Shown: piece after piece, positions 13,790-30,630 of the stretch
Layout of the letters: the number at the start of each line of letters is the position of its first letter
Position numbering within the stretch: position 1 is the first letter of the stretch
IMG/VR virus record: IMGVR_UViG_3300044712_002679
Coordinates: 180,406 to 244,405 of that record
DNA from: a virus
Length of the DNA stretch: 64,000 bases
Direction: 5' to 3' (one strand)
The notes under the pieces: model-generated
Seen by the model: the letters and a program-made list of their open reading frames with translations, nothing else
Told to the model about the DNA's origin: nothing
Database searches by the model: none
Translations under genes and position numbers: made by a program

Positions 13790-14560
13790 TTATTTGTTAT
13801 AAAATTTATCGAATTCTCGCATCACATCAACATTTGATAGTGCATAATCCCTGAAATCCATATAAGTATCTTTTATATACATTTTGAATTTGGTGATAGC
13901 ATTTCCAAGTTCAGCACCAGTTAAATTTGGATATTTTGTCATTACCATATTACCATTAAATCGACTAGCAATGATTTTATTTTCTTCGATTGTTTTTTTG
14001 TAGTCTGAAATTTGTTTATTAAGTTTAGATAAATCCAACACCGGTTTGACATCCAAACTACAACCGCCAAAATCAGCACTATTAAATTTAAGTAAATAAT
14101 TGAAATATTGATGTTCAACGAATGTGATTTTGTTTGGTAATCTAATTTCGTTTAGATATTTTATCCTCATATGATTTTGTACAACATATAAAACAATATC
14201 CACATCACCACCCATTTGAATAATCCAATTTTTGAATTCAATAACAAAGATTGATGAAACGTCTTCATGTCCAGGCGCAGTCCAAGATTGTTTAGTAATA
14301 TCCCATTTGGTTGTTTCTGCTTTACCTAAATCGTGAAAAAACCCACTTAAATCCAAGTTAATGTCATTATAAGCATTATGTAATCTATTTGTTACAAGCT
14401 TTATATGAATTAAAGTGTTTCCTTCGCTATGCCAAGTTTTATCTTGGTGTGCATATTCGGTAGAATCAACAAGCATTTTTAGTTTGCTTGGTGCTTTATC
14501 GTATAGATATGTGAACATATCGAAATATTCCATTATTTGTTGTTTTAAATGATGGTGCAA
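13790..14560 (-). CDS. HD-domain phosphohydrolase (paralog 1 of 3)
   Basis: HSEGNTLIHIKLVTNRL (H..G...H...V) and FFHDLGK motifs. Confidence 0.6.
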   Translation of the reverse strand: MHHHLKQQIMEYFDMFTYLYDKAPSKLKMLVDSTEYAHQDKTWHSEGNTLIHIKLVTNRLHNAYNDINLDLSGFFHDLGKAETTKWDITKQSWTAPGHEDVSSIFVIEFKNWIIQMGGDVDIVLYVVQNHMRIKYLNEIRLPNKITFVEHQYFNYLLKFNSADFGGCSLDVKPVLDLSKLNKQISDYKKTIEENKIIASRFNGNMVMTKYPNLTGAELGNAITKFKMYIKDTYMDFRDYALSNVDVMREFDKFYNK

Positions 14561-14613
14561 AGATATAAAAAATTTTTCATTAATTAAAATAATATATATT
14601 AAAAATAATATTA

Positions 14614-15267
14614 ATGATGATTAAATTATTTAAAGAGTATGTGAATATTGGGAATGAAAATATGACCCAAGAAATGATAATAAAATTGATGAGAAAAAAT
14701 TCTAGACTTGGCATGTCACCTAGTGAAACATTTAAAGAATTATTTGGTGATGAATCATATGAAAATTTTTTTAAAAGTTTAAGAATAATTGATCGGGGGG
14801 TTTTACAATCATATGAAAATGGTATAAATAAAAAAAGGATTATAGTAAATACAATTATGGATGGTTTAAAAAATGGTATATTATTGAAAGATATAATTAA
14901 ATCGGCCAAAATTACCATTAATGATATATTCGATTTAAGATATATAACGGATGAAGAAAAAAATGAAATTGTAGTAAAAACAATTATAAATGGATTAAAA
15001 AATGAAATATCATTAAAAGATATAATTAAAACAGAATTTAAAGGTATTTATATTGATGATATATTAAATTTTCTAACTGATGATGATAAAAAACTTATAA
15101 ATCAATATAATTTAGAAATTAGTAATTCACCTGAAAATGCTAACCAATATAACAAATTAGGAAAAACAAAAAAATATAAAAATAACGTAGTTGATCCATA
15201 TGAAGATTTCATAGATTCATATCCATATATTCAATATAGCAATAAGATTAGGCAACTAAAACATTAA
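14614..15267 (+). CDS. Hypothetical protein with internal approximately 35-aa repeats (N-terminus MMIKLFKEY)
   Basis: IMDGLKNGILLKDIIKS... repeats again as IINGLKNEISLKDIIKT... Confidence 0.5.
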   Translation: MMIKLFKEYVNIGNENMTQEMIIKLMRKNSRLGMSPSETFKELFGDESYENFFKSLRIIDRGVLQSYENGINKKRIIVNTIMDGLKNGILLKDIIKSAKITINDIFDLRYITDEEKNEIVVKTIINGLKNEISLKDIIKTEFKGIYIDDILNFLTDDDKKLINQYNLEISNSPENANQYNKLGKTKKYKNNVVDPYEDFIDSYPYIQYSNKIRQLKH

Positions 15268-15590
15268 TCTTCAGGTTTAAATGCTTCGGGATATTGTTTT
15301 TTTGCAAGATTGAACCAAGTATTAAATTTTTCGTGTTCGGTTTTATCCATCATTGCAATTTGTACAGTTAGTGACATTTCAAACCAACCTTTTCCAATAA
15401 GAAAACTGCAATAATTATTTTCATCTGATTTATCTATGTAAACTTCTTGCCTATAACCTTTACAACTATCATAGGCATCTTTCAAAACAACATTCGGAAA
15501 TGCGATTTTTACTTCTTCAATAAAATCTTTTTCATATTCGGTTGAATTGTCATCGTACCCGAAATATATTAAATCCATTATTTTATCCAC
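15264..15590 (-). CDS. Hypothetical protein
   Basis: 108-aa ORF, first of three overlapping minus-strand ORFs. Confidence 0.45.
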   Translation of the reverse strand: MDKIMDLIYFGYDDNSTEYEKDFIEEVKIAFPNVVLKDAYDSCKGYRQEVYIDKSDENNYCSFLIGKGWFEMSLTVQIAMMDKTEHEKFNTWFNLAKKQYPEAFKPED

Positions 15591-15867
15591 GATATCTATA
15601 TTTATTAAGTATTGTTGTAATGGTCGTTAAATCTGATTTTGTAGAATTATATGCGTTTTTATATGAATCGAGTTCTTTTTGTAAAGTTTTAATATGTTCT
15701 TCATAAAAACTTTCACTTATAGAAAAAGCGACATCAGCACCAACATTGAAACTTTCTTTATTTTCAGTTTCAGAATAACCTACGGTATCTTTAACTTTTT
15801 GTTTTATATTTTTTGGTATTTCCATTAGTGATTTTTTAAACTGTTCAAAAAATCTTCTTTCGTACAA
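15583..15867 (-). CDS. Hypothetical protein
   Basis: 94-aa ORF. Confidence 0.4.
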   Translation of the reverse strand: MYERRFFEQFKKSLMEIPKNIKQKVKDTVGYSETENKESFNVGADVAFSISESFYEEHIKTLQKELDSYKNAYNSTKSDLTTITTILNKYRYRG

Positions 15868-16115
15868 ATATCGTATTCAACATATTCATCAACATAATGC
15901 CACCAACCTTCAGGTTTATATGTCCAAATTGCAGTTAATGCATTTTTAACATCACATTGTTTAAGACAAGGATATACGTTATTTTGTTTAAGATCGAATC
16001 CACGATTTGATAGAAATGATCTTTGGGTTGTCATTTGGCATAAATCACCCCTTAGAAAGAAAGAATAATCTTTATTACTTTCATTATTTATTGCGGAACT
16101 AAGTAAATTAAACAT
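15825..16115 (-). CDS. Hypothetical protein
   Basis: 96-aa ORF. Confidence 0.4.
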   Translation of the reverse strand: MFNLLSSAINNESNKDYSFFLRGDLCQMTTQRSFLSNRGFDLKQNNVYPCLKQCDVKNALTAIWTYKPEGWWHYVDEYVEYDICTKEDFLNSLKNH

Positions 16116-16210
16116 ATTATTCGGTTTTAATTTGTGAACTTAAAATTCTTATTAATAATTTTATTTTTAAATATTCGACAAATATACTAAAAATTATTTA
16201 TATTTCAAAT

Positions 16211-16678
16211 TTATTTTTTTGCTTTATCATCCAATACCATAAATATTCTTAAATCTTTTTGAAATTCAATAGGAAAGGAATTATATGTATCAATCATATC
16301 ATTAACTGATTGTTTTGTTATTGGATCACCATTAGATGAATTTTTTCCAATTTTCAATTTTTCGGAATCTTTTATAATTCTTCTTCTTAAATAATGATAT
16401 CGTACAATATTTTTAGTATAGTCTGATATAAATGGAATATTTTTGATCATTTGATATGATTTTTCTTCGTGATTAGTAAAAGAATACCCATCTTCATCTT
16501 CATCTTTTGCTGCTACAAAAGGCTTACCAATATCGTGAAGTATTGCAGCTAAATAAAATTTAGGTTTATTAGATAATATTGAATACCATAACACTAATAA
16601 TGTGTGTATTAATACTGAATGTTTATGATATTTATTTTGTTTCCAAAACAATGTAATGAAAAAAATTTTGAAATTCAT
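16211..16678 (-). CDS. HD-domain phosphohydrolase (paralog 2 of 3)
   Basis: HKHSVLIHTLLVLWYS and AILHDIGKPF motifs. Confidence 0.6.
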   Translation of the reverse strand: MNFKIFFITLFWKQNKYHKHSVLIHTLLVLWYSILSNKPKFYLAAILHDIGKPFVAAKDEDEDGYSFTNHEEKSYQMIKNIPFISDYTKNIVRYHYLRRRIIKDSEKLKIGKNSSNGDPITKQSVNDMIDTYNSFPIEFQKDLRIFMVLDDKAKK

Positions 16679-16680
16679 AT

Positions 16681-17043
16681 TTATAATTTTAATTTTTCAA
16701 TGATTGGTAATATTATATTTGAATGTTCGATATAATATTTACTTAATGTATTTCTTGCATTAAGTGGTTTATCTTTTTTTGAAAATCTAGCACATTCCCA
16801 ATCAATAATCATTTGAATATAATTTTTTTCTGATTTGATTTTAGTGTTTACGTGGTGATATGAATTTTTTCTATGTATTTTAGATATTTTTTTTAATGGT
16901 ATTGGGAAAAAAATATACATAAGCAATTTGTCTAAATCGTGTGTTAATCCTAACCAAGATATTTTACCTGTTAATTTTTTTTCAACAACTAAAAAATAAT
17001 ATTTGTGTTTAAGTGTATATATGATATGATTTAATCTTTTCAT
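16681..17043 (-). CDS. Hypothetical protein. It may be an N-terminal module of the adjacent HD protein (it contains LTHDLDK)
   Basis: 120-aa ORF separated from 16211-16678 by a single stop codon. Confidence 0.35.
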   Translation of the reverse strand: MKRLNHIIYTLKHKYYFLVVEKKLTGKISWLGLTHDLDKLLMYIFFPIPLKKISKIHRKNSYHHVNTKIKSEKNYIQMIIDWECARFSKKDKPLNARNTLSKYYIEHSNIILPIIEKLKL

Positions 17044-17094
17044 TTGTCATTTTTATTTTTTGCAAATATAAACAAAAAAATTAATATATAATGT

Positions 17095-17475
17095 ATGAAA
17101 CATTTAAAAATATTTGAAAGGTTCAAAAAAGAACTTATAATAACAGAAGATGAATTTGATGAACAATATAATTTGGTTTTGAATCATTTTTATGATAATC
17201 CAGAAGATTGTGCATTTAGTGGATATATGTTTGAAACATATGGAAAAGAATATGAATATATAATTTCTTTGGTTGAAAATCCTGAAACAGCTAATACAGT
17301 TTGGACAATAATTGAAGATGATGATCTTGATGAAAACATATATGTTAGTGGGTTTTATAATCATCAGATGGTTTTTGGATATTTGGTTACAGAAGAAAAA
17401 GTTCCTGATAATGTAAGAATTACAGTTGGTGATGATTTAGATTTAAGACGTAAAATGAAAAAATACAATATATGA
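17095..17475 (+). CDS. Hypothetical protein, CTS-like family (MKHLKIFERF ... KKYNI)
   Basis: 126 aa. ATGA overlap with the next paralog. Confidence 0.5.
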   Translation: MKHLKIFERFKKELIITEDEFDEQYNLVLNHFYDNPEDCAFSGYMFETYGKEYEYIISLVENPETANTVWTIIEDDDLDENIYVSGFYNHQMVFGYLVTEEKVPDNVRITVGDDLDLRRKMKKYNI

Positions 17476-17927
17476 AACATTTAAAAATTTTTGAAGAATA
17501 TATTTCACCTGAAGATTGTATATTTTCAGATGCATCAAGATTAGATGCGATGCAAGAAGTTTTAGATTCAATTGAAAATGGTGATTATGATAATGTTGAT
17601 GAACCTGAATATGATTGGTTATTGGATCCATATGATGGTTATGAAAAACAAACTTACATTCAATATAATCCTGATGAAGGTATTATTACATATTGGGAAG
17701 GATGGTCAAAATTATGTTGGGATGCATTATTTAATAAAAAAGGTTATAACGGATTAAGTAAAGAAGAAGCTACAAAAAATGTAGTAGAAAATAGGATAAT
17801 ACCATCAATTAAAAATGAATTTAAAAATTTAGAACTTATTGAATATAAAAACTTTTGGCATGAAACCTGGGATGATGATATTGAAGATGGTTGGATAACT
17901 AAAATTGATTTTAAAATTATTGCCTAA
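17472..17927 (+). CDS. Hypothetical protein, CTS-like family (MKHLKIFEEY)
   Basis: 151 aa. Confidence 0.5.
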   Translation: MKHLKIFEEYISPEDCIFSDASRLDAMQEVLDSIENGDYDNVDEPEYDWLLDPYDGYEKQTYIQYNPDEGIITYWEGWSKLCWDALFNKKGYNGLSKEEATKNVVENRIIPSIKNEFKNLELIEYKNFWHETWDDDIEDGWITKIDFKIIA

Positions 17928-17950
17928 TTCTCCCAATCAATTTCAGTATC

Positions 17951-18493
17951 TTAATATTTTAGTTTTTTTAATTCTTTATTTAAAATGTTATCTTTTTGAT
18001 TTAATTCTTTTTTTAATTTTTGTGCTGTTTTTGGGGACAATACCCATTGAATTTTATTTTCTATATATTTTGGCATTTTTTTGATTTCTGCATTAACTTC
18101 GATATTTTTAAAATAATACATATGATCTATTGCAAACCAAATTATATCATCATAATTGAATCCACTAGCCATTCCTAATAATATTTGATATTTTGTATCA
18201 TTTGATAATGATTCAATTCCTTTAAGTGGAAAATAGGAATAATTTAAATTTTTTAGTATATTATCAAATTCATTACAATTTTTATTATCTATACAATCAA
18301 CATGAATTGCCCAAACTTCATCATCTGTTAAACCAAATGGAAATTTATATTTTTGGGATAGGTTTGTACCAAAATATTCATCAAAATCAACAGCAGGTTT
18401 ATAATTGGTTGTTCTAGTTCTAGTATATTCAAAAACAAATTCAGTAAAATTTGTTTTATCATCTTTAATAAATTCAATAAAATTTGTTTTCAT
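17951..18493 (-). CDS. Hypothetical protein
   Basis: 180-aa ORF. Confidence 0.5.
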   Translation of the reverse strand: MKTNFIEFIKDDKTNFTEFVFEYTRTRTTNYKPAVDFDEYFGTNLSQKYKFPFGLTDDEVWAIHVDCIDNKNCNEFDNILKNLNYSYFPLKGIESLSNDTKYQILLGMASGFNYDDIIWFAIDHMYYFKNIEVNAEIKKMPKYIENKIQWVLSPKTAQKLKKELNQKDNILNKELKKLKY

Positions 18494-18507
18494 ACCTTAT
18501 ATATTAA

Positions 18508-18532
18508 AATTTTTTTGTATCTTTGTCCAAAA
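18508..18532 (+). promoter_or_regulatory. Candidate promoter TTTTTGTATCTTTGT about 45 nt upstream of the 18577 gene
   Basis: The same box precedes many minus-strand genes. It contains TAnnTTTG. Confidence 0.4.
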
Positions 18533-18576
18533 TTAAAACAACTTTACATCATAGAAACATTTAAAACTTACAAATC

Positions 18577-18873
18577 ATGACAACTTCACAATTTGACGCA
18601 AAAACAGGCAGCATGTTTACAACTGAAATCACTGATTTTAGCCATTCGAATAGAATAATCGGCGAAGGTTATTTTGTTATAATTAACCCAGATTCAAAAC
18701 ATGTTTCATTCTCAAAAGCTAAACATGATATTTGTCTTGGTGATATCGTAAGCGACATTATTCCTAATTATACAAATCAACAATATGCTAACGATTATGG
18801 TGATAGGCTAACTGGCATGGGTTTGACGGTAAGGGAATTTATGCAAAAAAATTGTAGAATGAACATTTTGTAA
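18577..18873 (+). CDS. Hypothetical protein
   Basis: 98-aa ORF. Confidence 0.45.
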   Translation: MTTSQFDAKTGSMFTTEITDFSHSNRIIGEGYFVIINPDSKHVSFSKAKHDICLGDIVSDIIPNYTNQQYANDYGDRLTGMGLTVREFMQKNCRMNIL

Positions 18874-18894
18874 TTATCGCTTAGAGTCTAAACA

Positions 18895-19167
18895 GTGCAA
18901 CAATTTATTAGTGAAATGAATACGAAATACACAAAGATAGAATTGCCTAATTTTGATTACGAATTTGAAAATTATTGGTATTATCGAAGAGGTGGATATA
19001 AGATAGACAAGAGAACAAGAGAAGGTAAGTCTATTGTTGATTTTGTAACAAGTATCAATCCATCAAGATGTATAGAAATCGGAAATATGTATAATATTCA
19101 TCCTGCAATGATCTACACATCTATTCGTGTAAGAAATGAATTGTTTACTTTTCCGTTTATAAATTAA
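18895..19167 (+). CDS. Hypothetical protein
   Basis: 90-aa ORF. Confidence 0.4.
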   Translation: MQQFISEMNTKYTKIELPNFDYEFENYWYYRRGGYKIDKRTREGKSIVDFVTSINPSRCIEIGNMYNIHPAMIYTSIRVRNELFTFPFIN

Positions 19168-19177
19168 ATAAAACCTA

Positions 19178-19930
19178 ATGAAAAAATTATTAGAAATATT
19201 GCGAACAAGTAAAGAACCTTGGATTGAAATTCAAGGGTTATTTGATAATGGTGAATTAAAAATAATTTGTCCAATATTGTATGATTTATCTAATACAGAA
19301 GATGGTCATAAAAATAATTTTTTGCATACCTTAAAAGTATTAAAAAATACTTGTGACAATAATTTTTCTTTTGAAATGAAAGTTACTGCATTATTTCACG
19401 ATATTGGTAAGCCAATTACAAAACGTAAAATTGGAAATGACTGGGCTTTTCATAATCATGAAATTGTTGGTGCAAATATGTTTCTTAAAATGTGTAAAAC
19501 TGAAAATATTGATGATATAAATATTGATTATATTTACCGAATGATTTTACATCATGGTAGAATTAAGATGCATAGGGATGTAACAGAATCTGCAATAAGA
19601 AGATTAAATAAAGAAGTTGGACCAGATATAATATTTGATGTCATCAATTTTAGTGAATGTGATATTACTACTAGAAATCAAGCTAACAGGGAAAGAATTG
19701 TGTCGGGGCTTAATGTTATCAAAAATAGAATTGTTGAAGTTTGTGAAAAAGATGAATATGATTCTTGGAGATCACCATTAACTGGACACGTTATTATGGA
19801 ATTGTTCGATAATAAAATAGAAGGTAGAAAGATTGGTGAAATAAAACGTGCATATGATGATATTCTCAGAAATGAAAAAATGACATTAAATGAAGTAATT
19901 AATGATATAAAGAATAAATATTTATTATGA
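19178..19930 (+). CDS. HD-domain phosphohydrolase (paralog 3 of 3). It resembles the HD domain of CCA-adding/tRNA-repair enzymes
   Basis: HKNNFLHTLKVLKNT and ALFHDIGKP motifs. Confidence 0.6.
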   Translation: MKKLLEILRTSKEPWIEIQGLFDNGELKIICPILYDLSNTEDGHKNNFLHTLKVLKNTCDNNFSFEMKVTALFHDIGKPITKRKIGNDWAFHNHEIVGANMFLKMCKTENIDDINIDYIYRMILHHGRIKMHRDVTESAIRRLNKEVGPDIIFDVINFSECDITTRNQANRERIVSGLNVIKNRIVEVCEKDEYDSWRSPLTGHVIMELFDNKIEGRKIGEIKRAYDDILRNEKMTLNEVINDIKNKYLL

Positions 19931-20268
19931 AACAATTAAGATTTACAACAACTGAACCACGTGGTATGTTTAGCATGATAGATACGATAGATACTGAATT
20001 ATTAGTAACAATTGATAATATTGGAACACTCAGTGAATATAAACCAAAAGGCTCCGGAGCATATATTCACGGGGACGCAGAAGAATTAGCTGGGTTTGAC
20101 ATTCCAATTTTTTTAGATGGGGATTATGAACAGCTAGATTTGCCAATCGAAGAACAAGATATTTTAATGATTTTACCATCAGGTAATTATCAATGTGTAG
20201 CTGATTTGTCATATAAAACAATGTTTGCAGATGAAGCGGATAAATATCTTTTAACATTAAAGGTATAA
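19927..20268 (+). CDS. Hypothetical protein
   Basis: 113 aa, ATGA overlap with the upstream gene. Confidence 0.45.
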   Translation: MKQLRFTTTEPRGMFSMIDTIDTELLVTIDNIGTLSEYKPKGSGAYIHGDAEELAGFDIPIFLDGDYEQLDLPIEEQDILMILPSGNYQCVADLSYKTMFADEADKYLLTLKV

Positions 20269-20283
20269 GAAAATAAATACCAA

Positions 20284-20345
20284 TAAAGAAGAATTTAATT
20301 TCTTCTTTATTGATATTTAATTTATTGATATTTAATTTATTAAAA
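20284..20345. terminator. Hairpin (aaagaagaatttaatttcttcttt) followed by the direct repeat ttgatatttaatttat x2
   Basis: Direct reading. Confidence 0.4.
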
Positions 20346-20369
20346 ATACCAAATAGCTTTTTATTTATT

Positions 20370-20897
20370 TTAATCTAAATTTCCATTTAAAAATTTTTCT
20401 TCAACAATTTGCCATTTATTTTTAGGACATGATCCACCATCTTTAAATGTATTTAAAGTGAAAATTTTTCCTTTTAATGCACACCCACAAACAGAACATC
20501 TAACATATAATTCTTGATTAAAAAGTTCTGTAACAGCTTTAAATTCACAAGAATTACAAATTTCTATTCTTTTTGCAGCTAATTTAGATTGATTTAAATC
20601 TGGATTGAAACTAATTTTCCAAGCATTAAAAATTTCTTCAATTTTATTGATAATTTTATTTGTAATATTTGTAGTATCTGGTAAATTAAAAATACTACCT
20701 TCATATACGATTATATTCTTATCATCATCATCATTATAATTATAATTAACTGATAATTTTTTAAAATTGTCGGATTGTTCATCATCATTAAATATACTAT
20801 TATTAACTTCAATAGATAATTTATTATCATTGATTAGTGATGTGAGTATATCAGTCACATCTTTTGTTCCATAAAACGCTGAATTTATTTTTAACAT
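20370..20897 (-). CDS. Hypothetical protein with a C-terminal Cys cluster
   Basis: CNSCEF...CSVCGC...GGSCP. Confidence 0.45.
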   Translation of the reverse strand: MLKINSAFYGTKDVTDILTSLINDNKLSIEVNNSIFNDDEQSDNFKKLSVNYNYNDDDDKNIIVYEGSIFNLPDTTNITNKIINKIEEIFNAWKISFNPDLNQSKLAAKRIEICNSCEFKAVTELFNQELYVRCSVCGCALKGKIFTLNTFKDGGSCPKNKWQIVEEKFLNGNLD

Positions 20898-22939: not shown

Positions 22940-23101
22940 ATGGGAAGACCTACAATAACAGATAAAAAGAAAACATTATCACTTTCTATAAATATTGAAT
23001 TGGATGAATTGTTAGATAAAGTTTGTGAAGAAAAAAATATCAATAAATCTAAATATATTGAATATTTGATTAAAAAAGATATTGAAGAACGTGAAAGATA
23101 G
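22940..23101 (+). CDS. Small ribbon-helix-helix (Arc/CopG-like) DNA-binding protein
   Basis: MGRPTITDKKKTLSLSINIELDELLDKVCEE...YIEYLIKKDIE. Confidence 0.4.
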   Translation: MGRPTITDKKKTLSLSINIELDELLDKVCEEKNINKSKYIEYLIKKDIEERER

Positions 23102-23489
23102 ATTATTTTTCAATAGTAAAATCGAATTGCGGAAATCACCAATTCATGGGTGGGGTGTTTTTGCAAAGGATGATATTGAAATAAATGAAATATTAGAAGA
23201 AGTACCATATTTAATTGTACCAATGAAAAAAGGTGAATTATCATCAATTTTTATTGATTATAGGTTCAATTTTCCAAGTGGTGATTGGAAATATCAAGTA
23301 TTGCCAGGTGGATTTGGTTGTTATTATAATCATTCAAATAATCCAAATGCATATTGGATAACTGATGAAGAAAATGATATTTTTTTATTTATTACATCAG
23401 CAAAAATTAATAAAGATGATGAAATATTCGTATATTATGGTGATGTAAATTATTGGCAAGATGGAAGAATAAATACTAATGTCAAATAA
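23082..23489 (+). CDS. SET-domain protein-lysine methyltransferase (vSET-like, minimal)
   Basis: KSPIHGWGVFA, YNHSNNPNA and EIFVYYGDVNYW align with Chlorella-virus vSET (KSPLGGYGVFA, FNHSKDPNA, ITISYGDDYW). Confidence 0.7.
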   Translation: MKNVKDRLFFNSKIELRKSPIHGWGVFAKDDIEINEILEEVPYLIVPMKKGELSSIFIDYRFNFPSGDWKYQVLPGGFGCYYNHSNNPNAYWITDEENDIFLFITSAKINKDDEIFVYYGDVNYWQDGRINTNVK

Positions 23490-23882
23490 TTATTCTATAT
23501 CATTTTCTGAAATTCTAATATTATCATTATAAATAATACACCCACAAATATTAAGACAATCTTTCCAAGTTTGATCTGATTTTTCCCATTTTTCCCAAAT
23601 TTTTTTACCCGATTTACCTAGTACCATTGTTATTGGTTCTTCTAAAGATGGATAATCAATTTCAAATTTGGATTGATCAAATTTGGAAAATGGTTTTTTT
23701 ATTATTATTGGTTCACCACCAATATCTTCTATGACTTCTATCGAATAATATTCAGCCATTTCTTTGATATTTGTCCAATAGCTAGGGGAATTTATACCAT
23801 TTTCAAACATTTTATCTAAATTTTTATCACTTGTGCCATGATATAAATAATATTCGGGAAAAGAATTAAAATCAGTTATCAT
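23490..23882 (-). CDS. Hypothetical protein
   Basis: 130-aa ORF. Confidence 0.45.
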   Translation of the reverse strand: MITDFNSFPEYYLYHGTSDKNLDKMFENGINSPSYWTNIKEMAEYYSIEVIEDIGGEPIIIKKPFSKFDQSKFEIDYPSLEEPITMVLGKSGKKIWEKWEKSDQTWKDCLNICGCIIYNDNIRISENDIE

Positions 23883-23914
23883 TATTTAATATTTTCTTGT
23901 ATATATTAAAAATG

Positions 23915-23930: not shown

Positions 23931-23941
23931 AAAATAAAAAT

Positions 23942-24220
23942 ATGAATATATTAAACAAAAGTGGGTTTTTAACCGATGAAGACAGAAAAGAACCATTAGA
24001 ACGTGGATGTGAATATTTTACGTTTAAAACTAATTTGGATTTATCTATACCAATTAAAGTAATTCCACATGGAATCAGAAATGAATATAGCATAGATCAA
24101 TATAGCAAAGATTTGGCTTCATTTATTTCATTTTGGACTCATTTTATTGCTAAAGATCTAAATGGATTTTCAGGGTTTAATAATGTTAAATTTGAATTAA
24201 TTGGATTTAAAATAATATAA
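23942..24220 (+). CDS. Hypothetical protein
   Basis: ORF 23897-24220 trimmed to MNILNK. Confidence 0.4.
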   Translation: MNILNKSGFLTDEDRKEPLERGCEYFTFKTNLDLSIPIKVIPHGIRNEYSIDQYSKDLASFISFWTHFIAKDLNGFSGFNNVKFELIGFKII

Positions 24221-24222
24221 TT

Positions 24223-24699
24223 ATGATGGGTCCTTGGAATACACGTAATGTGCCACCATTGAAAACATTGATAATACTTGGTGATGATGATTTCCAAAAA
24301 TTGATTAATGGTGAAGTTGTTGAAAAAGCTGGTGTTAAAATTGCATTGTCAGATATTGGATTTTTACGAATGCAAGAAATTATAGATAAAAATTATAATA
24401 AATCATTAAATGAAACTTATCCTAAACAACAGAAGCAATATGCTGATGTAGATTTTATTGAATATACCGACAATGATGATAATTACGTTGAACCCGAACG
24501 GAATTGTTCTGATTGGGTTGATATGAGGTTATATTGCCTATACAAAGGATGTAAACAATATATTAAAGGCAAGGAAGGTTATAATGGACTTTTTGTGACT
24601 GAAAATGGGAAACAAGCAGATTTAAGAAATCAATGTTGGATTTGTAAAAAACACGATCACGAAAATGAAACATTTGTAGATTTTAATGGAAAAAAATAA
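24223..24699 (+). CDS. Hypothetical Cys-rich protein
   Basis: 158 aa with CSDW...CLYKGC...CWICKKHDH. Confidence 0.45.
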   Translation: MMGPWNTRNVPPLKTLIILGDDDFQKLINGEVVEKAGVKIALSDIGFLRMQEIIDKNYNKSLNETYPKQQKQYADVDFIEYTDNDDNYVEPERNCSDWVDMRLYCLYKGCKQYIKGKEGYNGLFVTENGKQADLRNQCWICKKHDHENETFVDFNGKK

Positions 24700-24734
24700 A
24701 ACTTTTTAAAAATAATTTGCTAAGTATAAAAAGT

Positions 24735-24750
24735 TTTTCTATATTTGTAC
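24735..24750 (+). promoter_or_regulatory. Candidate promoter -7 box (ctatatttgtac) ahead of a short leader ORF and the tRNA-Gln trio
   Basis: TAnnTTTG match. Confidence 0.3.
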
Positions 24751-24848
24751 AGAATTAGAAAAAAGTGGAAAAAAAAGAAATATATATAATACGAAATGAA
24801 AAATTTATCTAATAATATTATGATTCAACAACAACAACAGATTACGGT

Positions 24849-24930
24849 CTGATTGGGAAGAATCATGTCTTTTTTTTACCCAATCAGTGATGGTTGGGTT
24901 TTTTATTGCCCAAATTTATTTGGGTTTTTT
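24849..24930. terminator. Two consecutive hairpin/T-run elements
   Basis: ctgattggg...cccaatcag, then gcccaaatttatttgggtttttt. Confidence 0.4.
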
Positions 24931-24943
24931 ATTGATTTTTTAT

Positions 24944-25015
24944 TGCTTTTTAATGTAATGGTTAGCATATAACACTTTGACTGTTAGAGTCTTGGTTCGA
25001 ATCCAAGGGAGGCAA
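24944..25015 (+). tRNA. tRNA-Gln-like (TTG) with a G:U-rich acceptor
   Basis: Acceptor TGCTTTT/GGAGGCA, D-arm ATGTAATGGTTAGCAT, anticodon stem TAACA/TGTTA with loop CTTTGAC, T-arm CTTGGTTCGAATCCAAG. Confidence 0.5.
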
Positions 25016-25027
25016 CAAAACAAAAAT

Positions 25028-25098
25028 AGCCTTGTAGCATAATGAAGTGCTCCATCCTTTGAAGATGTAAGGTATCGGTTCAAGTCCGATCAAGGCTT
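25028..25098 (+). tRNA. tRNA-Gln (TTG)
   Basis: Perfect acceptor AGCCTTG/CAAGGCT, D-arm GCATAATGAAGTGC, anticodon stem CATC/GATG with loop CTTTGAA, T-arm ATCGGTTCAAGTCCGAT. Confidence 0.75.
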
Positions 25099-25099
25099 C

Positions 25100-25171
25100 A
25101 ATCTTTTGGTGTAATGGTCAGCATATAATTTTCTGAAATTTAAGATATTGGTTCGATTCCAATAAAGATTA
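25100..25171 (+). tRNA. tRNA-Gln (CTG), probable
   Basis: Perfect acceptor AATCTTT/AAAGATT, D-arm GTGTAATGGTCAGCATAT, anticodon loop TTCTGAA, T-arm ATTGGTTCGATTCCAAT. Confidence 0.55.
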
Positions 25172-25231
25172 CAAATGTCCATAGTGGTATTTTTTCGATA
25201 TTTTTTATTTATATATAAATAAAAAAACACT

Positions 25232-26077
25232 ATGGACAAAATTTTAAAACAATTTGGAAAAGATAAACTTATAGAAGCAGTAAACGAATCTAATTCTTTT
25301 GTTGAAGCAACATCTTTTTTAGGATTAGATGCAAAAAATACTAACATTAAAAAGAATGTGGAAAGATCAATTAAAAGATTAGGATTATCCACAGAACACT
25401 TTGAAAGTGTCAAACGAGTAAAAGATGCTAAAACTAGATACACAAAAGAAAAATTAGAATCGCTTGTTATAAAATGTAAAAATTATAAAGAAATTTTAAT
25501 TGAATTGGATGTTTTACCTATTGATAATAATTATAAAAAATTAAAATCTGAATTATATCGTTATAAAATTGATTTTTCACATTTAAAAAATCAAAAAATA
25601 TCAACAATTAAAGTAAATTGGGCAAAAGAAGTTTTGGAACCAATATTTAAAAAATCATTATCCCAAAAAGAAGTTTTAGAAAAATTAGGATTAAGATCTG
25701 CTGGTGGTAATTTTAATACTTTACGAAAATATATAAAATTATATAATTTAGATAGTTCTCATTTTATTAAAAATTATGATTCTATGTGCAATGTTAGTAA
25801 AAATAAAAAAATTCCTTTAGATCAAATTTTAGTTGAAAATTCGACATATGATAGAACACATCTTAAAGATAGATTATATAAAGAAGGATTAAAAGAAAGA
25901 AAATGTGAAATGTGTGAACAAGATGAAAATTGGCATGGTAAACGTATGAGTTTGATTATTGATCACATAAATGGTATTCATAATGACAATAGATTAGAAA
26001 ATTTAAGAATTATTTGTCCTAATTGTAATGCAACATTAGACACACATTGTGGAAAAAATAATAAAAAAGCCAGATAA
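25232..26077 (+). CDS. HNH homing endonuclease, paralog of 7789-8494
   Basis: CEMCEQDENWHGKRMSLIIDHINGIHNDNRLENLRIICPNCNATLDTHCGKN. Shares ILVENSTY..LK.RLYKEGLKERKCE with the paralog. Immediately downstream of the tRNA-Gln genes. Confidence 0.7.
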   Translation: MDKILKQFGKDKLIEAVNESNSFVEATSFLGLDAKNTNIKKNVERSIKRLGLSTEHFESVKRVKDAKTRYTKEKLESLVIKCKNYKEILIELDVLPIDNNYKKLKSELYRYKIDFSHLKNQKISTIKVNWAKEVLEPIFKKSLSQKEVLEKLGLRSAGGNFNTLRKYIKLYNLDSSHFIKNYDSMCNVSKNKKIPLDQILVENSTYDRTHLKDRLYKEGLKERKCEMCEQDENWHGKRMSLIIDHINGIHNDNRLENLRIICPNCNATLDTHCGKNNKKAR

Positions 26078-26089
26078 CCTGGCTTTTTT
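26063..26089. terminator. Rho-independent terminator-like hairpin
   Basis: aaaaaagccagataacctggctttttt. Confidence 0.6.
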
Positions 26090-26158
26090 ATTATTTTTTG
26101 ATAAATTTAGTTATTAAAAATTTATCGTCAGTTCAATTTTATGTTTATAAATTTCCCT

Positions 26159-26449
26159 TTATTTAAAATCTGGTTCATAACCTTTAATTATAGGCTTTTG
26201 TGTTTTTGTGTGAACTTCATGACCGCATAATGTACATTTTTTTGTCCACCTATCAACTTGAACATCACGATAACCAGCATAATCCCACCAAGGATCAGAA
26301 CCACTTCCTACTTGAACACTACCATAACCTTCTTTAACTGTTTCAGGATTAAAATATGGTTCACCATAAGTATGTTTGCAATTTGCAATTTTATACTTTT
26401 CTGCTTCAATTTGATTTTGAAGTTCTTTTATTTTATCGCTTGAATTCAT
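26159..26449 (-). CDS. Hypothetical Zn-ribbon-like protein
   Basis: 96 aa with CKH...CTLCGH. Confidence 0.4.
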   Translation of the reverse strand: MNSSDKIKELQNQIEAEKYKIANCKHTYGEPYFNPETVKEGYGSVQVGSGSDPWWDYAGYRDVQVDRWTKKCTLCGHEVHTKTQKPIIKGYEPDFK

Positions 26450-26453
26450 ATTT

Positions 26454-26672
26454 TTATATTAAAACCATTGTGTGACCATTTGTATTCCATTCTTCATTTG
26501 GGTTTATTTGAATACAATTAATATTACTCTTAAAAAAATCATACCCAAAATATGAATATACTTCACATTCACCATCATTTTTCACATTTTGTATTGTACA
26601 TATGTTACCAACCCAATCTCTATCACCTGAAGTAATTTTTACTTTAATTCCTTCAAAATCTTTTATTTCCAT
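26454..26672 (-). CDS. Hypothetical protein
   Basis: 72 aa. A 41-aa upstream ORF (26655-26777) lies between it and the promoter. Confidence 0.4.
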   Translation of the reverse strand: MEIKDFEGIKVKITSGDRDWVGNICTIQNVKNDGECEVYSYFGYDFFKSNINCIQINPNEEWNTNGHTMVLI

Positions 26673-26784
26673 AAATCTAAATTTGGTTGAAGACTAGTTG
26701 AAAGATTGATACCAAGATTGATACCTGTTAGGGACATTTCATTTAACATTTCATCAGTTAATTCTACAGTATTCATTTTTTATA

Positions 26785-26822
26785 GTTTTAATGATTAACG
26801 ATACAAAGATACAAAAATTTTT
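26785..26822 (-). promoter_or_regulatory. Conserved promoter box (minus strand reads TTTTTGTATCTTTGTATCGTTAATCAT)
   Basis: Member of a promoter family of at least 8 copies containing TATCTTTG (TAnnTTTG). Confidence 0.45.
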
Positions 26823-26834
26823 TGAATTAAAAAA

Positions 26835-27410
26835 CTAAATCGTTTTCATTTTCATATATTGCCTAACATATTCAACACTTTTATTTAAAAATGGTGTCAA
26901 ATCAACAATATGATGTTCTGTATTACTATACATTTCCGATTCTGAAAATTCTGCAACTATATTGTTAGCAGAATAAAATATAATACTAGGTTCAATATCT
27001 TTTAAATTTGGTCTTAATTGTGTGAGTATTTTTGCTTTTGTTACCAGTTCAGAAAATACAGAAGATAATACATCACTATTAATTTGGTCAGAATTAGAAA
27101 AACTGGTAGTTACATTTTCATTTTTAGTTGATCTATTTTTTACATTTTCATGTATATATTCTATAACATACCAAAGTGATTTACCATAACTTGGTGAATT
27201 CATTCTGAACATCTTAGTTGTATTTTTTTCATTGATATCATTGATTGGTAAATCAATCCACAATCTAAAAGATTCTTCGTGTGTATCGTTTTCGATGATA
27301 ACTATATGACCCCTGAATAATACTTCCGAAAATGTTTCACTATCGTTGATAAACCGACTAGCAACATAATCTCTTAGTTCAATCCAATCATTCGAATTAA
27401 TTTCTTTCAT
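26835..27410 (-). CDS. Hypothetical protein
   Basis: 191-aa ORF. Confidence 0.5.
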   Translation of the reverse strand: MKEINSNDWIELRDYVASRFINDSETFSEVLFRGHIVIIENDTHEESFRLWIDLPINDINEKNTTKMFRMNSPSYGKSLWYVIEYIHENVKNRSTKNENVTTSFSNSDQINSDVLSSVFSELVTKAKILTQLRPNLKDIEPSIIFYSANNIVAEFSESEMYSNTEHHIVDLTPFLNKSVEYVRQYMKMKTI

Positions 27411-27411
27411 A

Positions 27412-27452
27412 ATATTTTGTAATGATTAACGACAAAGATACAAAATTTTTTG
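27412..27452 (-). promoter_or_regulatory. Conserved promoter box (minus strand AAATTTTGTATCTTTGTCGTTAATCATTAC) directly upstream of the 27410 start
   Basis: Same family. Confidence 0.45.
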
Positions 27453-27478
27453 GATAAAAAAAATAATATATAAACAAT

Positions 27479-28084
27479 ATGAAAACAAAATTTGCAGAAT
27501 TTATAATTGAATCAAAAACGTATAATTTATATAAAGGGGTCACTAGATTGGACGAAATATTAAAAAGTGGTAAACTTAAATATGATAATAATTGGGAAAC
27601 AACTATAAGACAAAATATGGGTATAATGGGTATTGGAATATCAGCTACTCGTGTTTTTTCAACAGCATTAAAATATGGTGAAGCAATTATAGAATTTGAT
27701 ATCGAAAAATTGAGTGCCAAATATAGAATTATACCATTTTCGGAAAATCCAGATTATTTTATTTGGTATAAAAAACATTTTTCACCACCAGACAGTTATA
27801 ATTATGTAAAAACTGGAATTAGTGATAATCAATATAATGATATTTTTTGGGATTATAAAACAAATAAATATGATCCGGATTTTAATATTGCAGAAGAAAT
27901 TATTTTAACAAAAGAAATACCTATAAAATATTTCAAAAAGGTGTATCTCAACACAGATAATATACTATTACTTAAATTATTAAAATCTAAAAATATTCCA
28001 TATGAAATTGTTGATAATGAACATTTATCTGAAATAAGACATAAAAATAAGAAGAAAAATAAAAAAAATTTATTAGATTTTTGA
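27479..28084 (+). CDS. Hypothetical protein
   Basis: 201-aa ORF. Confidence 0.5.
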   Translation: MKTKFAEFIIESKTYNLYKGVTRLDEILKSGKLKYDNNWETTIRQNMGIMGIGISATRVFSTALKYGEAIIEFDIEKLSAKYRIIPFSENPDYFIWYKKHFSPPDSYNYVKTGISDNQYNDIFWDYKTNKYDPDFNIAEEIILTKEIPIKYFKKVYLNTDNILLLKLLKSKNIPYEIVDNEHLSEIRHKNKKKNKKNLLDF

Positions 28085-28270
28085 TATTTTTTGAATTTTG
28101 TTATCATCAAATCTAATTTCTAAATTTTTTGAAAAAATAGAATCAACTTTATTATCATACATTACAACATAATCATTATCTGATGGTAACCAACCATTCA
28201 ATTCCTTATTTAGTCTACAAACCTTTTTTAGTTTTAGTTGTAATATATCATTTAATTCGCTAAATTTCAT
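28073..28270 (-). CDS. Small hypothetical protein
   Basis: 65-aa ORF. Confidence 0.3.
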   Translation of the reverse strand: MKFSELNDILQLKLKKVCRLNKELNGWLPSDNDYVVMYDNKVDSIFSKNLEIRFDDNKIQKISKI

Positions 28271-28283
28271 TATTTTAAATATT

Positions 28284-28308
28284 AAAAAAGGGGATTAAAT
28301 CCCCTTTG
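28284..28308. terminator. Rho-independent terminator-like hairpin overlapping the stop codon of 28295-28843
   Basis: aaaaaaggggattaaatcccctttg. Confidence 0.5.
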
Positions 28309-28843
28309 CCATTTTATTTTTGATTTCATTTATTTTCAATTGGGCATCTTCTTTATTTTCAAAATAATTTCCTGTTGCTTTACGATAATGATAAGCAAAT
28401 TCATTTATGTGTGTTTCGGTTGTTACCATATGTTGAATGATGCCCTTTGAACTGATAAAGAAGTATATTTTACCATCATAAATATCTTTATCGGTTACTG
28501 TATAACTTACTTTATTGATTTCAATTGTATATTTTGCTCTTGTTTCGGTAACTGATTGTGCAGTTAAAACTGTTGCAGGAACTTTTACTGACAATCCACG
28601 ATGTTTTACTGACAATCCACGATGAGATTTTGCAAATTTTTCAGTAATATAAACCACATCCCCTGGTTTGAAATATGTTTCATATTCAACTTTGAAGAAA
28701 TCTGGTTCTTTTTCAGGATTATAAATACAAACTTGACCACCATCAAATACCCATTGTCCATTAATGAATTTAACACCGGTTCCAATTTTAATTCCACCAG
28801 GAAGAATTTTTGTAGTTACATAATAAGTTGCTTTCATATTCAT
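28295..28843 (-). CDS. Hypothetical protein with an in-frame 21-nt tandem duplication (HRGLSVK x2)
   Basis: 182 aa. DNA repeat at 28591-28632. Confidence 0.5.
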   Translation of the reverse strand: MNMKATYYVTTKILPGGIKIGTGVKFINGQWVFDGGQVCIYNPEKEPDFFKVEYETYFKPGDVVYITEKFAKSHRGLSVKHRGLSVKVPATVLTAQSVTETRAKYTIEINKVSYTVTDKDIYDGKIYFFISSKGIIQHMVTTETHINEFAYHYRKATGNYFENKEDAQLKINEIKNKMAKGI

Positions 28844-28882
28844 TTGTTGTTTTAAATTCGATACAAAGATACGAATTATTTT
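28844..28882 (-). promoter_or_regulatory. Conserved promoter box (minus strand AATTCGTATCTTTGTATCGAATTTAAAACAACAA) upstream of the 28843 start
   Basis: Same family. Confidence 0.45.
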
Positions 28883-28967
28883 TTAAATGAACAAACTTTA
28901 TTTGTGATATTCTTCTTTATATTTCATATTGGTTTCCAATCGGGTCTAAAACATGAAATTAGTTTTT

Positions 28968-29004
28968 AAAAAAAGTGGGTCTAATAATTAGACCCACTTT
29001 TTTT
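28968..29004. terminator. Rho-independent terminator-like hairpin
   Basis: aaaaaaagtgggtctaataattagacccacttttttt. Confidence 0.6.
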
Positions 29005-29211
29005 CACTTTATAATATTGTTTTTTCATATTAATTAATGCATTTAATATTTTTCCAACAACTTCAACCACTTCGTTATCATCAGTGACTTCAACCACTTC
29101 GTTATCATCAGTGACTTTCAAATCACCCAATTCTAACTCTAACGCATTAATCATATCTTCTAAAGATATATATGGTTTATTATTACTACCAGTTATTGTT
29201 TCAATTAACAT
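28981..29211 (-). CDS. Small protein with a TDDNEVVEV tandem repeat
   Basis: 76 aa. The start overlaps the terminator hairpin. Confidence 0.3.
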   Translation of the reverse strand: MLIETITGSNNKPYISLEDMINALELELGDLKVTDDNEVVEVTDDNEVVEVVGKILNALINMKKQYYKVKKSGSNY

Positions 29212-29329
29212 ACTTTTAATTTTTATTGTTTATATTTAAGCAATATACTAATTATTTTTTATTTAAGCAATATACTAATTATTTTTTTATGATTAAATAA
29301 TTAATTTCAAATATGATATAAAATTACAT

Positions 29330-29779
29330 TTAATCATTTTTATTCCTTATTTCTTTTAGTTCATACAATTTTAACATTCGTATTAATTGAAGGGAATTTT
29401 TATATTTTGCGTTACTTTTTGGTATATTTTGATTTATATACAAAGTAGAATCTGAAAAATATTGAATAGAATCACAAACAATTTTTATTTTTTTTCCACA
29501 CAGTTTTGGTTGTTCACCAAATTTGCCAAAAAAATTATCAATTGGTGTAGAAAATTTACAATTCTTGTATAACATAATATTGTTTGATTTGTGTTTCATT
29601 TGCCAAACAATATCTAATCTATATTTATTTTTTTCACAATCTTCGATTTTTTCAAGAATCTGATTAAGAATAATATCATCTGTAATAACTAACTCAAAGC
29701 TTTTATCGGCTCGATTAATCATTTTTACGTTATTTTTATCTTTCTTATAAAATATTAAGAATTTTTTCATATTTTGCAC
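29330..29779 (-). CDS. Hypothetical protein
   Basis: 149-aa ORF. Confidence 0.45.
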   Translation of the reverse strand: MQNMKKFLIFYKKDKNNVKMINRADKSFELVITDDIILNQILEKIEDCEKNKYRLDIVWQMKHKSNNIMLYKNCKFSTPIDNFFGKFGEQPKLCGKKIKIVCDSIQYFSDSTLYINQNIPKSNAKYKNSLQLIRMLKLYELKEIRNKND

Positions 29780-29822
29780 AATAAAATAAAACTATTTTGC
29801 ACAATAAAACTATTTTGCACAT
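29762..29822. promoter_or_regulatory. Three direct repeats (TTTTGCACAATAAAA core, about 19-bp period) in the divergent intergenic region. Operator-like
   Basis: gcacaataaaataaaactattttgcacaataaaactattttgcaca. Confidence 0.45.
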
Positions 29823-29883
29823 TCAACAAAAGTAAAAAATAAATTTCAAACAAAAAAATAATTGTAAAAAATATATATAGATT

Positions 29884-30630
29884 ATGATTACTAATTTTAA
29901 AAATTTTAAGAATAAAAAAGAATATATTTTATTAGTCGGACCACCTGGTAGTGGAAAATCGACATATATATCTAAATTACAAAGGTTTGGAAAAAAATAT
30001 GACATTATAAATCGTGATGATATTGTTATTGATATTGCTGAAAAAAATGGACTTACATATAAAGAAATGTTTAGTAGACCAAATAATATTTTTTTAAAAA
30101 ATGGTAAACATTTTATTCCAAATTCTTCTGATTTTTATGTTGAAAATGGTAAGAAATATTTAAAAAACTTTGAATATTTGGGTGATATAATTGAAGTTAC
30201 TGATGGTGAATATAAAAGTAGAATATCACCTGAAATATTTACAAAATTATCAGAATTAAATAATGTAGTTGAAGATACGCTTAATAAAAATATAGAACAT
30301 GCAATAAGGAAAAAACACAATATTATTATTGATATGACTAATAATAATAGGTATTATAGACAATTTTTCATTAATAAATTAAAAACACATAAACAATATT
30401 ATAAAATTATTGCTGTGATATTTAATGATGGTGGTAAAGGAATGGAAGATGTCTTAATAAATGTTAACAAAAGAAGAGATTTAGAATTAGCAAAAAGTGG
30501 AAGAAATAAAGCAATACCTGAAGATATTATTAGAAAATTTATTAGCAGTTATGAACCACCAACAAAATCAGAAGGAATTGACAAAATTATACATATTGAT
30601 ACTAAGAAAAAATTGGAAAAAATAATCTAA
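29884..30630 (+). CDS. Polynucleotide 5'-kinase (T4 Pnk kinase-domain-like, P-loop)
   Basis: Walker A LVGPPGSGKST, DMTNNNRYYRQ and RNKAIPEDIIRKF parallel T4 Pnk (GCPGSGKST, SDTNLNPERR, GTKAVPIDVLRSM). No HAD phosphatase domain. Confidence 0.6.
   Translation: MITNFKNFKNKKEYILLVGPPGSGKSTYISKLQRFGKKYDIINRDDIVIDIAEKNGLTYKEMFSRPNNIFLKNGKHFIPNSSDFYVENGKKYLKNFEYLGDIIEVTDGEYKSRISPEIFTKLSELNNVVEDTLNKNIEHAIRKKHNIIIDMTNNNRYYRQFFINKLKTHKQYYKIIAVIFNDGGKGMEDVLINVNKRRDLELAKSGRNKAIPEDIIRKFISSYEPPTKSEGIDKIIHIDTKKKLEKII

Follow-up and report, generated by a model that had tools for sequence, protein, structure and literature searches.

A huge-phage locus encodes a Pnk-clade kinase and three HD proteins of the CCA-adding-enzyme type, probably a split variant of phage RNA end-healing

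We analysed a 64,000-nucleotide stretch of viral DNA (IMG/VR record IMGVR_UViG_3300044712_002679, positions 180,406 to 244,405; hereafter the window), which carries a gene for a Pnk-like polynucleotide kinase at 29884-30630 and genes for three HD-domain proteins at 13790-14533, 16211-16678 and 19178-19930. The window has a G+C content of 24% and standard stop-codon usage. A 501,337-bp metagenome contig of the Joint Genome Institute (JGI) encodes the kinase and the HD proteins at 100% identity, so the window is part of a huge phage-like genome; this ~501 kb contig is most likely that of a huge phage. Searches of INPHARED by megablast, and by tblastn with the kinase, found no near relative of this phage. 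All four open reading frames (ORFs) named in the initial annotation of this DNA are present and are real, conserved genes, one of them with a revised start codon, and we hold the family assignments of the kinase and the three HD proteins with high confidence.

The kinase gene (29884-30630, plus strand) encodes a stand-alone protein of 248 residues. Its conserved blocks are a P-loop (GPPGSGKST, residues 19-27), INRDD (D45), IIIDMTN (D150 and N153), R159 and RNKAIP (206-211), in what we take to be the order found in T4 Pnk. G19, P21, G24, K25, S26, D45, D150, N153, R159 and the lid lysine K209 are invariant in 20 homologues; the lid arginines (KRRD and R206) are present and vary among these homologues. 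Asp45 aligns with the ‘NQDD’ of the structures 9drz and 9d8a. In characterised enzymes, the catalytic aspartate after strand 2 activates the 5′-OH (Asp35 in T4 and Asp36 in MciKIN), and their catalytic elements match those of the window kinase (PMC11571804). Domain models matching the protein include Pfam AAA_33 (1.8e-11), KTI12 (5.5e-8, in the C-terminal half), the PHROG ‘polynucleotide kinase’ (4e-12) and NCBIfam PSTK (1e-7). When a profile of the 20 homologues was compared with all PDB sequences, the Mucorales tRNA-splicing RNA 5′-OH kinases came first (1.9e-11 and 9.5e-11), followed by mammalian PNKP (3e-10), Capnocytophaga Pnkp1 (8e-9), T4 Pnk (5e-7), PSTK (2e-6) and CthPnkp (4.5e-6). The fold is likewise nearest to solved polynucleotide kinases, and the top relatives by sequence and by fold are all polynucleotide or tRNA kinases, the best solved ones being experimentally proven RNA 5′-OH kinases of tRNA splicing (PMC11571804).

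No HAD or HAD_PNKP domain was found in the kinase with Pfam and NCBIfam models, and the polypeptide stops at residue 248, once the kinase fold is complete; the same tool readily found HAD_PNKP in Ruegeria phage RpAliso. The motif blocks, the profiles and the domain scan thus agree with the initial annotation, which had described a T4 Pnk-like 5′-kinase lacking the HAD phosphatase. The protein also contains a family-specific insert of ~70 residues (~60-130), which is missing from relatives of 165 residues and was modelled with lower confidence. By its motifs and profile matches, the 248-residue protein is a member of the polynucleotide-kinase clade, and by analogy with characterised relatives it is expected to transfer a phosphate from a nucleoside triphosphate to the 5′-OH end of RNA (or DNA).

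One of the HD proteins is encoded at 19178-19930 (plus strand) and has 250 residues, comprising an HD(IG) phosphohydrolase domain and a C-terminal tail. It matches TIGR02692, the model of the actinobacterial CCA tRNA nucleotidyltransferase, at 1.1e-27 over profile positions 214-449 of 466 only. The profile of its family aligns with chain residues 225-504 of the A-adding enzyme 3wfo (3.1e-25). By this coverage the protein is a CCA/A-adding enzyme minus the nucleotidyltransferase head, a ‘headless’ C-terminal half. The family also aligns, at 5e-8, with the HD region of a genuine Cca from Colwellia, a reference that was the sole return of a scan of genome contigs with an HD-kinase alignment and poorly chosen patterns, and the protein itself matches the Pfam HD model above threshold (1.2e-7). 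The candidate metal ligands H50, H74-D75, H94-E95, H126 and D162 are invariant in 30 sequences. Nearly all of the 114 homologues are ~250-residue, HD-only, stand-alone proteins, found on contigs of up to 711 kb. The homologues form a graded series, from HD only through neck plus HD (P0141-P0144) to full length (P0145, P0149 and P0151), the neck or the full head being kept in a few remote ones. In contig L002 (9195-9998), which belongs to another huge-phage lineage, the HD gene of this family directly follows a PARG-like macrodomain gene (PF10021), so that the metabolism of ADP-ribose or of NAD-derived phosphates may be involved.

A second headless HD protein of the CCA-enzyme type, of 247 residues and again with an HD domain and a tail, is encoded at 13790-14533 (minus strand). 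The ORF had been annotated as an HD protein reaching 14560; that assignment stands, and the ATG at 14533, where both the JGI gene call and the homologue alignment begin, is a likelier start than the TTG at 14560. Its candidate ligands (H43, H67-D68, H89-E90, H121 and D154) are invariant in 30 sequences. The ORF alone is sub-threshold for Pfam HD (0.051); most of its 90 homologues carry PF01966. The 13790 and 19178 family profiles align over 218 columns (hhalign E 1.2e-16), including a common C-terminal ‘NG/TG..IM...G..(L/I)G’ tail, and the 13790 profile matches 3wfo residues 307-468 at 1.5e-4. The protein has a WHxEG motif, as in the E. coli-type Cca recovered from Colwellia, with whose HD region the family also aligns. 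In a Foldseek comparison of its model with viral structures, HD-AAA fusions and ‘polyA polymerase’ proteins were among the first matches. The genes upstream of the 19178-family genes in contigs L001 and L002 were considered as further members of the 13790 family and rejected on comparison. Just upstream of this HD gene lies an ORF (12855-13709, minus strand) with five copies of a perfect tandem peptide repeat (KPKMVKSEKIE).

The third protein, encoded at 16211-16678 (minus strand), is a minimal HD core of 155 residues that lacks the C-terminal tail of the other two. It has H25, H48-D49, H70-E71 and H95, with a presumed closing aspartate at D150/D151, and matches Pfam HD (1.6e-8), TIGR00277 HDIG (3.6e-6), TIGR02692 (5.2e-6) and phrog_6931 (2.3e-5). 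It aligns with the 19178 family in the HD core only (hhalign probability 97.5%, E 5e-12, 80 columns). Exhaustive phmmer searches with this mini-HD protein returned remote matches that include full CCA enzymes and HD+AAA_33 fusions. The adjoining ORF at 16681-17043, which contains ‘THDLDK’, was examined as a fourth HD gene and rejected, with no family match and an hhalign probability of 0.2%.

The H..HD..HE..H motif of the HD domains in CCA-adding enzymes occurs in all three proteins, each of which also has a candidate closing aspartate, and further CCA-enzyme models (NF008137 and phrog_2244) are also matched. Two motifs had been reported in all three: HD(I/L)GK is indeed present in each, and H..G...H...V does not occur literally in the 16211-16678 protein. 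The three had also been called paralogous, which holds in the sense of a deep homology seen in profile matches; they diverged anciently, and pairwise BLASTP gives only 1e-5 to 0.008. The proposed resemblance to the HD domain of CCA-adding enzymes was upheld by the comparisons with TIGR02692, 3wfo and Colwellia Cca. The best sequence and fold matches are not to the dGTPase/SAMHD1, HD-GYP, PDEase or RelA/SpoT families, so that the proteins do not group with deoxynucleoside triphosphate triphosphohydrolases or signalling phosphodiesterases, the outcome that the initial annotation had named as contrary to its reading. As judged from these profiles, the three proteins are HD metal-dependent phosphohydrolases of the CCA-adding-enzyme type. 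The two larger families are widespread in huge phages as stand-alone proteins, and the H..HD..HE..H..D ligand set is invariant in them without exception, which argues for live active sites. Neither the three HD proteins nor other scanned ORFs of the window match PF01743 or PF12627, the pol-beta head being detected in the remote homologues P0278, P0272 and P0145; since the head and most or all of the neck are missing, the headless proteins would be unable to add CCA themselves.

The part of class II CCA-adding enzymes retained by the two ~250-residue proteins holds the tRNA body, so a tRNA substrate is a reasonable proposal for them, and by analogy they probably still dock on tRNA. From characterised relatives, we infer that the HD proteins would take 2′,3′-cyclic, 3′- or 2′-phosphates off RNA 3′ ends. 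The HD domain of Mycobacterium tuberculosis Cca, which is of the TIGR02692 type, is a phosphohydrolase whose activity is lost in the HD-domain mutant H298A (PMC10673834), and E. coli Cca has 2′,3′-cyclic phosphodiesterase and phosphatase activity according to Yakunin 2004, as cited in PMC10673834.

Several comparisons connect this HD type with this kinase clade. PHROG 6931 has 343 positions, of which the first half is matched by two of the window HD ORFs and the last third by the kinase. Among the matches of the mini-HD protein, P0283 and P0323 are HD+AAA_33 fusion proteins; P0283 resembles the window kinase family in its kinase half (8.4e-20) and both larger HD families in its HD half (~1e-9). 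Campylobacter phage CP21 gp070, annotated as a ‘putative poly A polymerase’, similarly consists of an HD domain (36-125) and an AAA_33 domain (185-326), and matches the window kinase family at 1.7e-20 and the 19178 HD family at 1.7e-8. Across P0283 and gp070, the matches of the HD halves to the window HD families range from 1e-8 to 1e-10. CP21 gp070, P0283 and PHROG 6931 share the architecture of Runella HD-Pnk, a characterised 2′,3′-phosphoesterase and 5′-OH kinase, as quoted in PMC6097658. A tblastn search with the short form of the kinase (P0027, 165 residues) gave matches in 129 phage records, cultured or deposited. In phage RpAliso, a short kinase that matches the window family (hhalign 6.2e-29) overlaps the end of an Rnl1-type RNA ligase gene (PF09511, 9e-26) by 4 nucleotides and is translationally coupled to it, with a HAD_PNKP phosphatase gene 2.5 kb upstream. 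A predicted functional link between the kinase clade and the HD type of the window is therefore backed by natural fusions and by the ligase-kinase operon of a cultured phage.

These data suggest that the window encodes, as separate genes, the two enzymatic halves of an ‘HD-Pnk’-type system for healing nucleic-acid ends. The kinase would phosphorylate 5′-OH ends, the HD proteins would clear 2′,3′-cyclic, 3′- or 2′-phosphates from RNA 3′ ends, and a ligase encoded elsewhere could then join the healed ends; acceptor-end damage could be mended without a ligase, the 3′ terminus being rebuilt by a CCA-adding enzyme. On the evidence of the sequences, we lean towards a function of the kinase and the HD proteins in healing RNA or tRNA ends, and the locus is probably a split variant of known phage RNA end-healing. 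By analogy, a kit for mending cut tRNA ends is plausible. The more specific role of countering host anticodon nucleases is possible, and we regard it as doubtful.

A number of observations weigh against this proposal. The four genes lie on both strands over a 17 kb span with ~25 unrelated ORFs between them, and so do not form an operon. Our domain scan covered ~85 ORFs of the first ~37 kb, as concatenates, together with selected ORFs of the remainder, which gave partial coverage of the glycosyltransferase-rich second half; among the scanned ORFs of the 64-kb window there was no ligase, PolyA_pol head, HAD or HAD-PNKP domain or 2H phosphoesterase, and RtcB and Tpt1 domains were likewise not found. 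This agrees with the initial annotation in that the window has no recognisable ligase, and the ~10 kb flanks on either side, seen in short near-identical contigs from other samples, also lack ligase, head, HAD and 2H repair genes. The neighbours of homologues of the kinase and of the larger HD families vary, and in three other huge contigs no tRNA gene lies within 10 kb of homologues of the two larger HD families; closeness to the tRNA array of the window is therefore not a conserved feature. The position of T4 Pnk Arg38, moreover, is occupied by Val48 in the window kinase, so that this contact is unconserved. The insert-bearing kinase has no tblastn match in INPHARED at E 1e-3, where the LR7565xx huge phages do carry 19178-type HD proteins, and LR756502 has only the short kinase form, 185 kb from its HD gene. 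Because the long form is absent from INPHARED huge phages with the 19178-type HD, the HD proteins and the insert-bearing kinase are not strictly co-inherited. One coordinated toolkit, as first proposed, is thus not borne out by the gene order, the unconserved neighbours and tRNA proximity, and the missing ligase.

Two results of the scans were set aside. ‘Serglycin’ matches in the concatenates were spurious and produced by the GS linkers. An ORF at 23490-23882 with a ‘YHGTS’ sequence was examined as a Tpt1/KptA-like 2′-phosphotransferase, and its matches were not significant (phrog_5470 0.0026, NCBIfam 0.03-0.05 and PDB phmmer E 1.1); its likeness to 55094-55732 is confined to the pentapeptide and was rejected as evidence.

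The tRNA genes of the window, which we treat as context, were called with ARAGORN and Rfam. They comprise an array of 23 genes (6205-12757, plus strand) and three tRNA-Gln genes (24944-25172, plus strand), giving a total of 26 instead of the ~30 estimated earlier. Each program found 25, one differing: the tRNA at 11120-11190 was called by Rfam only and the tRNA-Asp at 7323-7399 by ARAGORN only, and two of the ARAGORN calls have an undetermined anticodon. In the 16 of the 26 gene sequences that were read, the 3′ CCA is encoded only in two tRNA-Tyr genes. Most of the tRNA genes read lack an encoded CCA, and the phage therefore depends on a CCA-adding enzyme anyway. Sequences and folds revealed a long, hairpin-forming variable arm in six plus-strand tRNAs (6205-6295, 6663-6749, 6985-7069, 8823-8907, 8951-9035 and 12459-12555), which are 85-97 nucleotides in total and have Met, Glu, Asp, Cys or Arg anticodons. 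A normal-length isoacceptor lies near each of them, and the extra bases are at the variable-arm position and not at the intron position. To our knowledge, long variable arms are normally restricted to Ser, Leu and, in bacteria, Tyr tRNAs. HNH-type homing-endonuclease genes lie inside the array (7790-8494, plus strand) and beside the tRNA-Gln trio (25232-26077, plus strand), and their C-terminal halves are near-identical.

A bolder version of the end-healing proposal, which we consider on the whole unlikely, takes these tRNAs into account. The two huge-phage families of ‘decapitated’ CCA enzymes, with a tRNA-docking body, a tail and a live HD site, would be dedicated cleaners of tRNA 3′ ends and, with the insert-bearing kinase, would provide a ligase-optional maintenance of the phage’s own CCA-less, long-arm tRNAs, a logic distinct from that of T4 Pnk/Rnl.

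It is also conceivable, though again unlikely, that the kinase and the HD proteins have unrelated roles. The 250-residue HD proteins would then dock on tRNA like a CCA enzyme and clear 2′,3′-cyclic or 3′-phosphates, so that the host CCA-adding enzyme could finish or rebuild the CCA-less phage tRNAs without a ligase, and the kinase would phosphorylate DNA or RNA 5′ ends in replication, repair or RNA turnover. Both larger HD families are homologous to the full C-terminal half of CCA/A-adding enzymes including the tail, most window tRNAs read have no encoded CCA, the HD families are common in huge phages with no kinase gene linked to them, and INPHARED huge phages with the 19178-type HD lack the long-form kinase, all of which would fit such a division, as does the description of the Cca HD domain as removing 2′,3′-cyclic phosphates from tRNA 3′ ends (PMC10673834). 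The natural fusion proteins that unite this HD type and this kinase clade, however, argue that the two activities are often paired; tRNA binding by headless proteins is itself a prediction, and the HD homologues in other contigs have no tRNA genes close by. A further idea makes the 250-residue proteins halves of a split CCA- (or A- or CC-) adding enzyme, partnered with a separate nucleotidyltransferase head from the phage or the host and maturing the CCA-less phage tRNAs. The homology does span exactly the class II part that follows the head and neck, the homologues are graded from HD only through neck plus HD to full length, and the phage tRNAs need CCA addition. We nevertheless think it very unlikely: no ORF for a PolyA_pol head was seen among the scanned window ORFs or adjoining the homologues in four other contigs, many phages conserve the two paralogous headless families in stand-alone form, and the invariance of the metal ligands points to selection acting on the HD catalytic site itself.

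Other possibilities would remove the HD proteins from RNA repair altogether. The HD superfamily has many members that are cyclic-nucleotide phosphodiesterases, alarmone hydrolases or Cas3/Cas10 nucleases, and the window proteins might serve counter-defence by degrading second messengers or 2′,3′-cyclic nucleotides (cyclic oligoadenylates, cyclic nucleoside monophosphates or (p)ppGpp-like alarmones), or as HD nucleases. PADLOC gave weak Cas3/Cas10 HD matches (best 2e-7), and the PARG-like macrodomain gene beside one 19178-family homologue might be read in the same way. We give this a low probability, as profiles place all three proteins with the CCA-enzyme HD (1e-27 versus 1e-7 or worse), the HD-GYP, SpoT/RelA, dGTPase and PDEase models of Pfam and NCBIfam have no significant match, and the C-terminal tail of the CCA-enzyme type would be left without a role. 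Finally, at least one HD protein could be a mixed-valent diiron oxygenase of the PhnZ/TmpB/MIOX type, acting on a small molecule and not as a phosphohydrolase. Such an enzyme would have the identical six-ligand set, and weak PhnZ/Phn-HD sequence matches were indeed obtained with the 19178-family profile (0.007) and the mini-HD protein (1.5e-4). The similarity to CCA/A-adding enzymes is far stronger and reaches beyond the HD core, with a longer alignment to 3wfo (151 versus 129 residues); HD-kinase fusions are among the nearest viral structures, and the domain scan of the window found no phosphonate or inositol pathway genes nearby. An oxygenase therefore seems highly improbable.

Other genes of the window include an IMPDH/GMP-reductase-like gene (205-1924, plus strand) that is apparently interrupted: a 341-residue ORF (205-1230) lies between IMPDH-matching segments, the region has a weak intein-splicing match, an IMPDH N-terminal gene lies just upstream in a near-identical contig, and a related contig encodes an intein-containing IMPDH of 752 residues. 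A YqeY-like protein (PF09424, 1.4e-13) is encoded at 2950-3366 (plus strand); in contigs L015 and L016, from another huge-phage lineage, a YqeY gene is found 3 kb upstream of a 13790-family HD gene. There is also a SET-domain protein (23082-23489, plus strand; PF00856, 7e-12), which is a putative lysine methyltransferase, and a further homing endonuclease (56549-58402, minus strand), which matches homing-endonuclease and HNH PHROGs (3e-100 and 9e-72) and Pfam DUF7487. Much of the second half (37851-52773 and 60311-63800) seems to form a large block of genes for sugar modification, whose translations were read and few of which were scanned. It includes a 1752-residue multi-domain glycosyltransferase-like protein, a UDP-GlcNAc-2-epimerase-like protein, methyltransferases and epimerases, as well as a fucosyltransferase-like match (PF00852) at 60311-61159, with Glycos_transf_2 and DUF6734 matches in the near-identical contig L006. 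From its sequence, this block would suggest extensive glycan synthesis by the phage.

Returning to the end-healing genes, their closest known counterpart is HD-Pnk, reportedly described by Munir and Shuman in 2017 as one polypeptide with an N-terminal HD phosphoesterase and a C-terminal kinase. HD-Pnk from Runella slithyformis and CP21 gp070/PHROG 6931 have the same two modules as the window, namely a CCA-enzyme-like HD phosphoesterase and a minimal Pnk-clade kinase. In the window, by contrast, the modules are encoded separately at a distance of 10-16 kb, there are three copies of the HD module, two of which carry the extra CCA-enzyme tail, and the kinase carries the ~70-residue insert. The Runella likeness is one of architecture, and the ligase gene that is adjacent there, according to PMC6097658, has no counterpart found near the window genes. 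Unlike T4 PseT, the window kinase has no HAD 3′-phosphatase domain and has a valine at the Arg38 equivalent, and 3′ ends would be healed by the HD proteins. The Mucorales kinases RazKIN (9D8A) and LcoKIN (9DRZ) resemble the window kinase in being stand-alone and monofunctional with the same minimal fold (PMC11571804), but they are eukaryotic, GTP-specific through a G-loop serine and without the insert, and have ~26% identity to it. The roseophage Rnl1/kinase/HAD-PNKP cassette of RpAliso likewise has a stand-alone kinase of the same clade and a separate 3′-phosphatase gene; there the kinase is coupled to a ligase and the phosphatase is of the HAD type, whereas in the window a ligase was not seen and the candidate phosphatases are of the HD type.

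Class II CCA enzymes (E. coli Cca, M. tuberculosis Rv3907c and Aquifex 3WFO) share their HD(IG) motifs and whole C-terminal half with the larger window HD proteins by homology, and differ from the window HD proteins in having the nucleotidyltransferase head, which the latter lack together with most or all of the neck. In these enzymes the HD domain is a phosphohydrolase implicated in tRNA 3′-end repair (PMC10673834). A survey of RNA-repair sets in jumbo phages lists a kinase, Rnl1, Rnl2 or RtcB ligases, a CCA enzyme, KptA and a phosphoesterase that in most cases is of the HAD or 2H type and only rarely calcineurin-like or HD (PMC7824862). Judged by these comparisons, the locus is a split and duplicated form of the HD-Pnk solution, and what is unusual here is that two HD modules are whole ‘decapitated’ C-terminal halves of CCA enzymes that form conserved families across huge phages.

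Phage counter-measures to tRNA-cutting host defences are known mainly from T4 Pnk/Rnl1. Our analysis suggests that huge phages may use another parts list, consisting of a minimal kinase and of HD phosphoesterases for which the repair half of CCA-adding enzymes was reused, encoded as separate, duplicated genes. The practical gain would be modest, as the enzymology of HD-Pnk and of the Cca HD domain is already known in outline. If true, the proposal would give a function to two widespread huge-phage families now annotated as ‘HD domain’ or ‘poly(A) polymerase’, would provide a case in which a bacterial tRNA-maturation enzyme was split by domain fission into a stand-alone repair factor, and would offer testable candidates for how megaphages protect their large investments in tRNAs.

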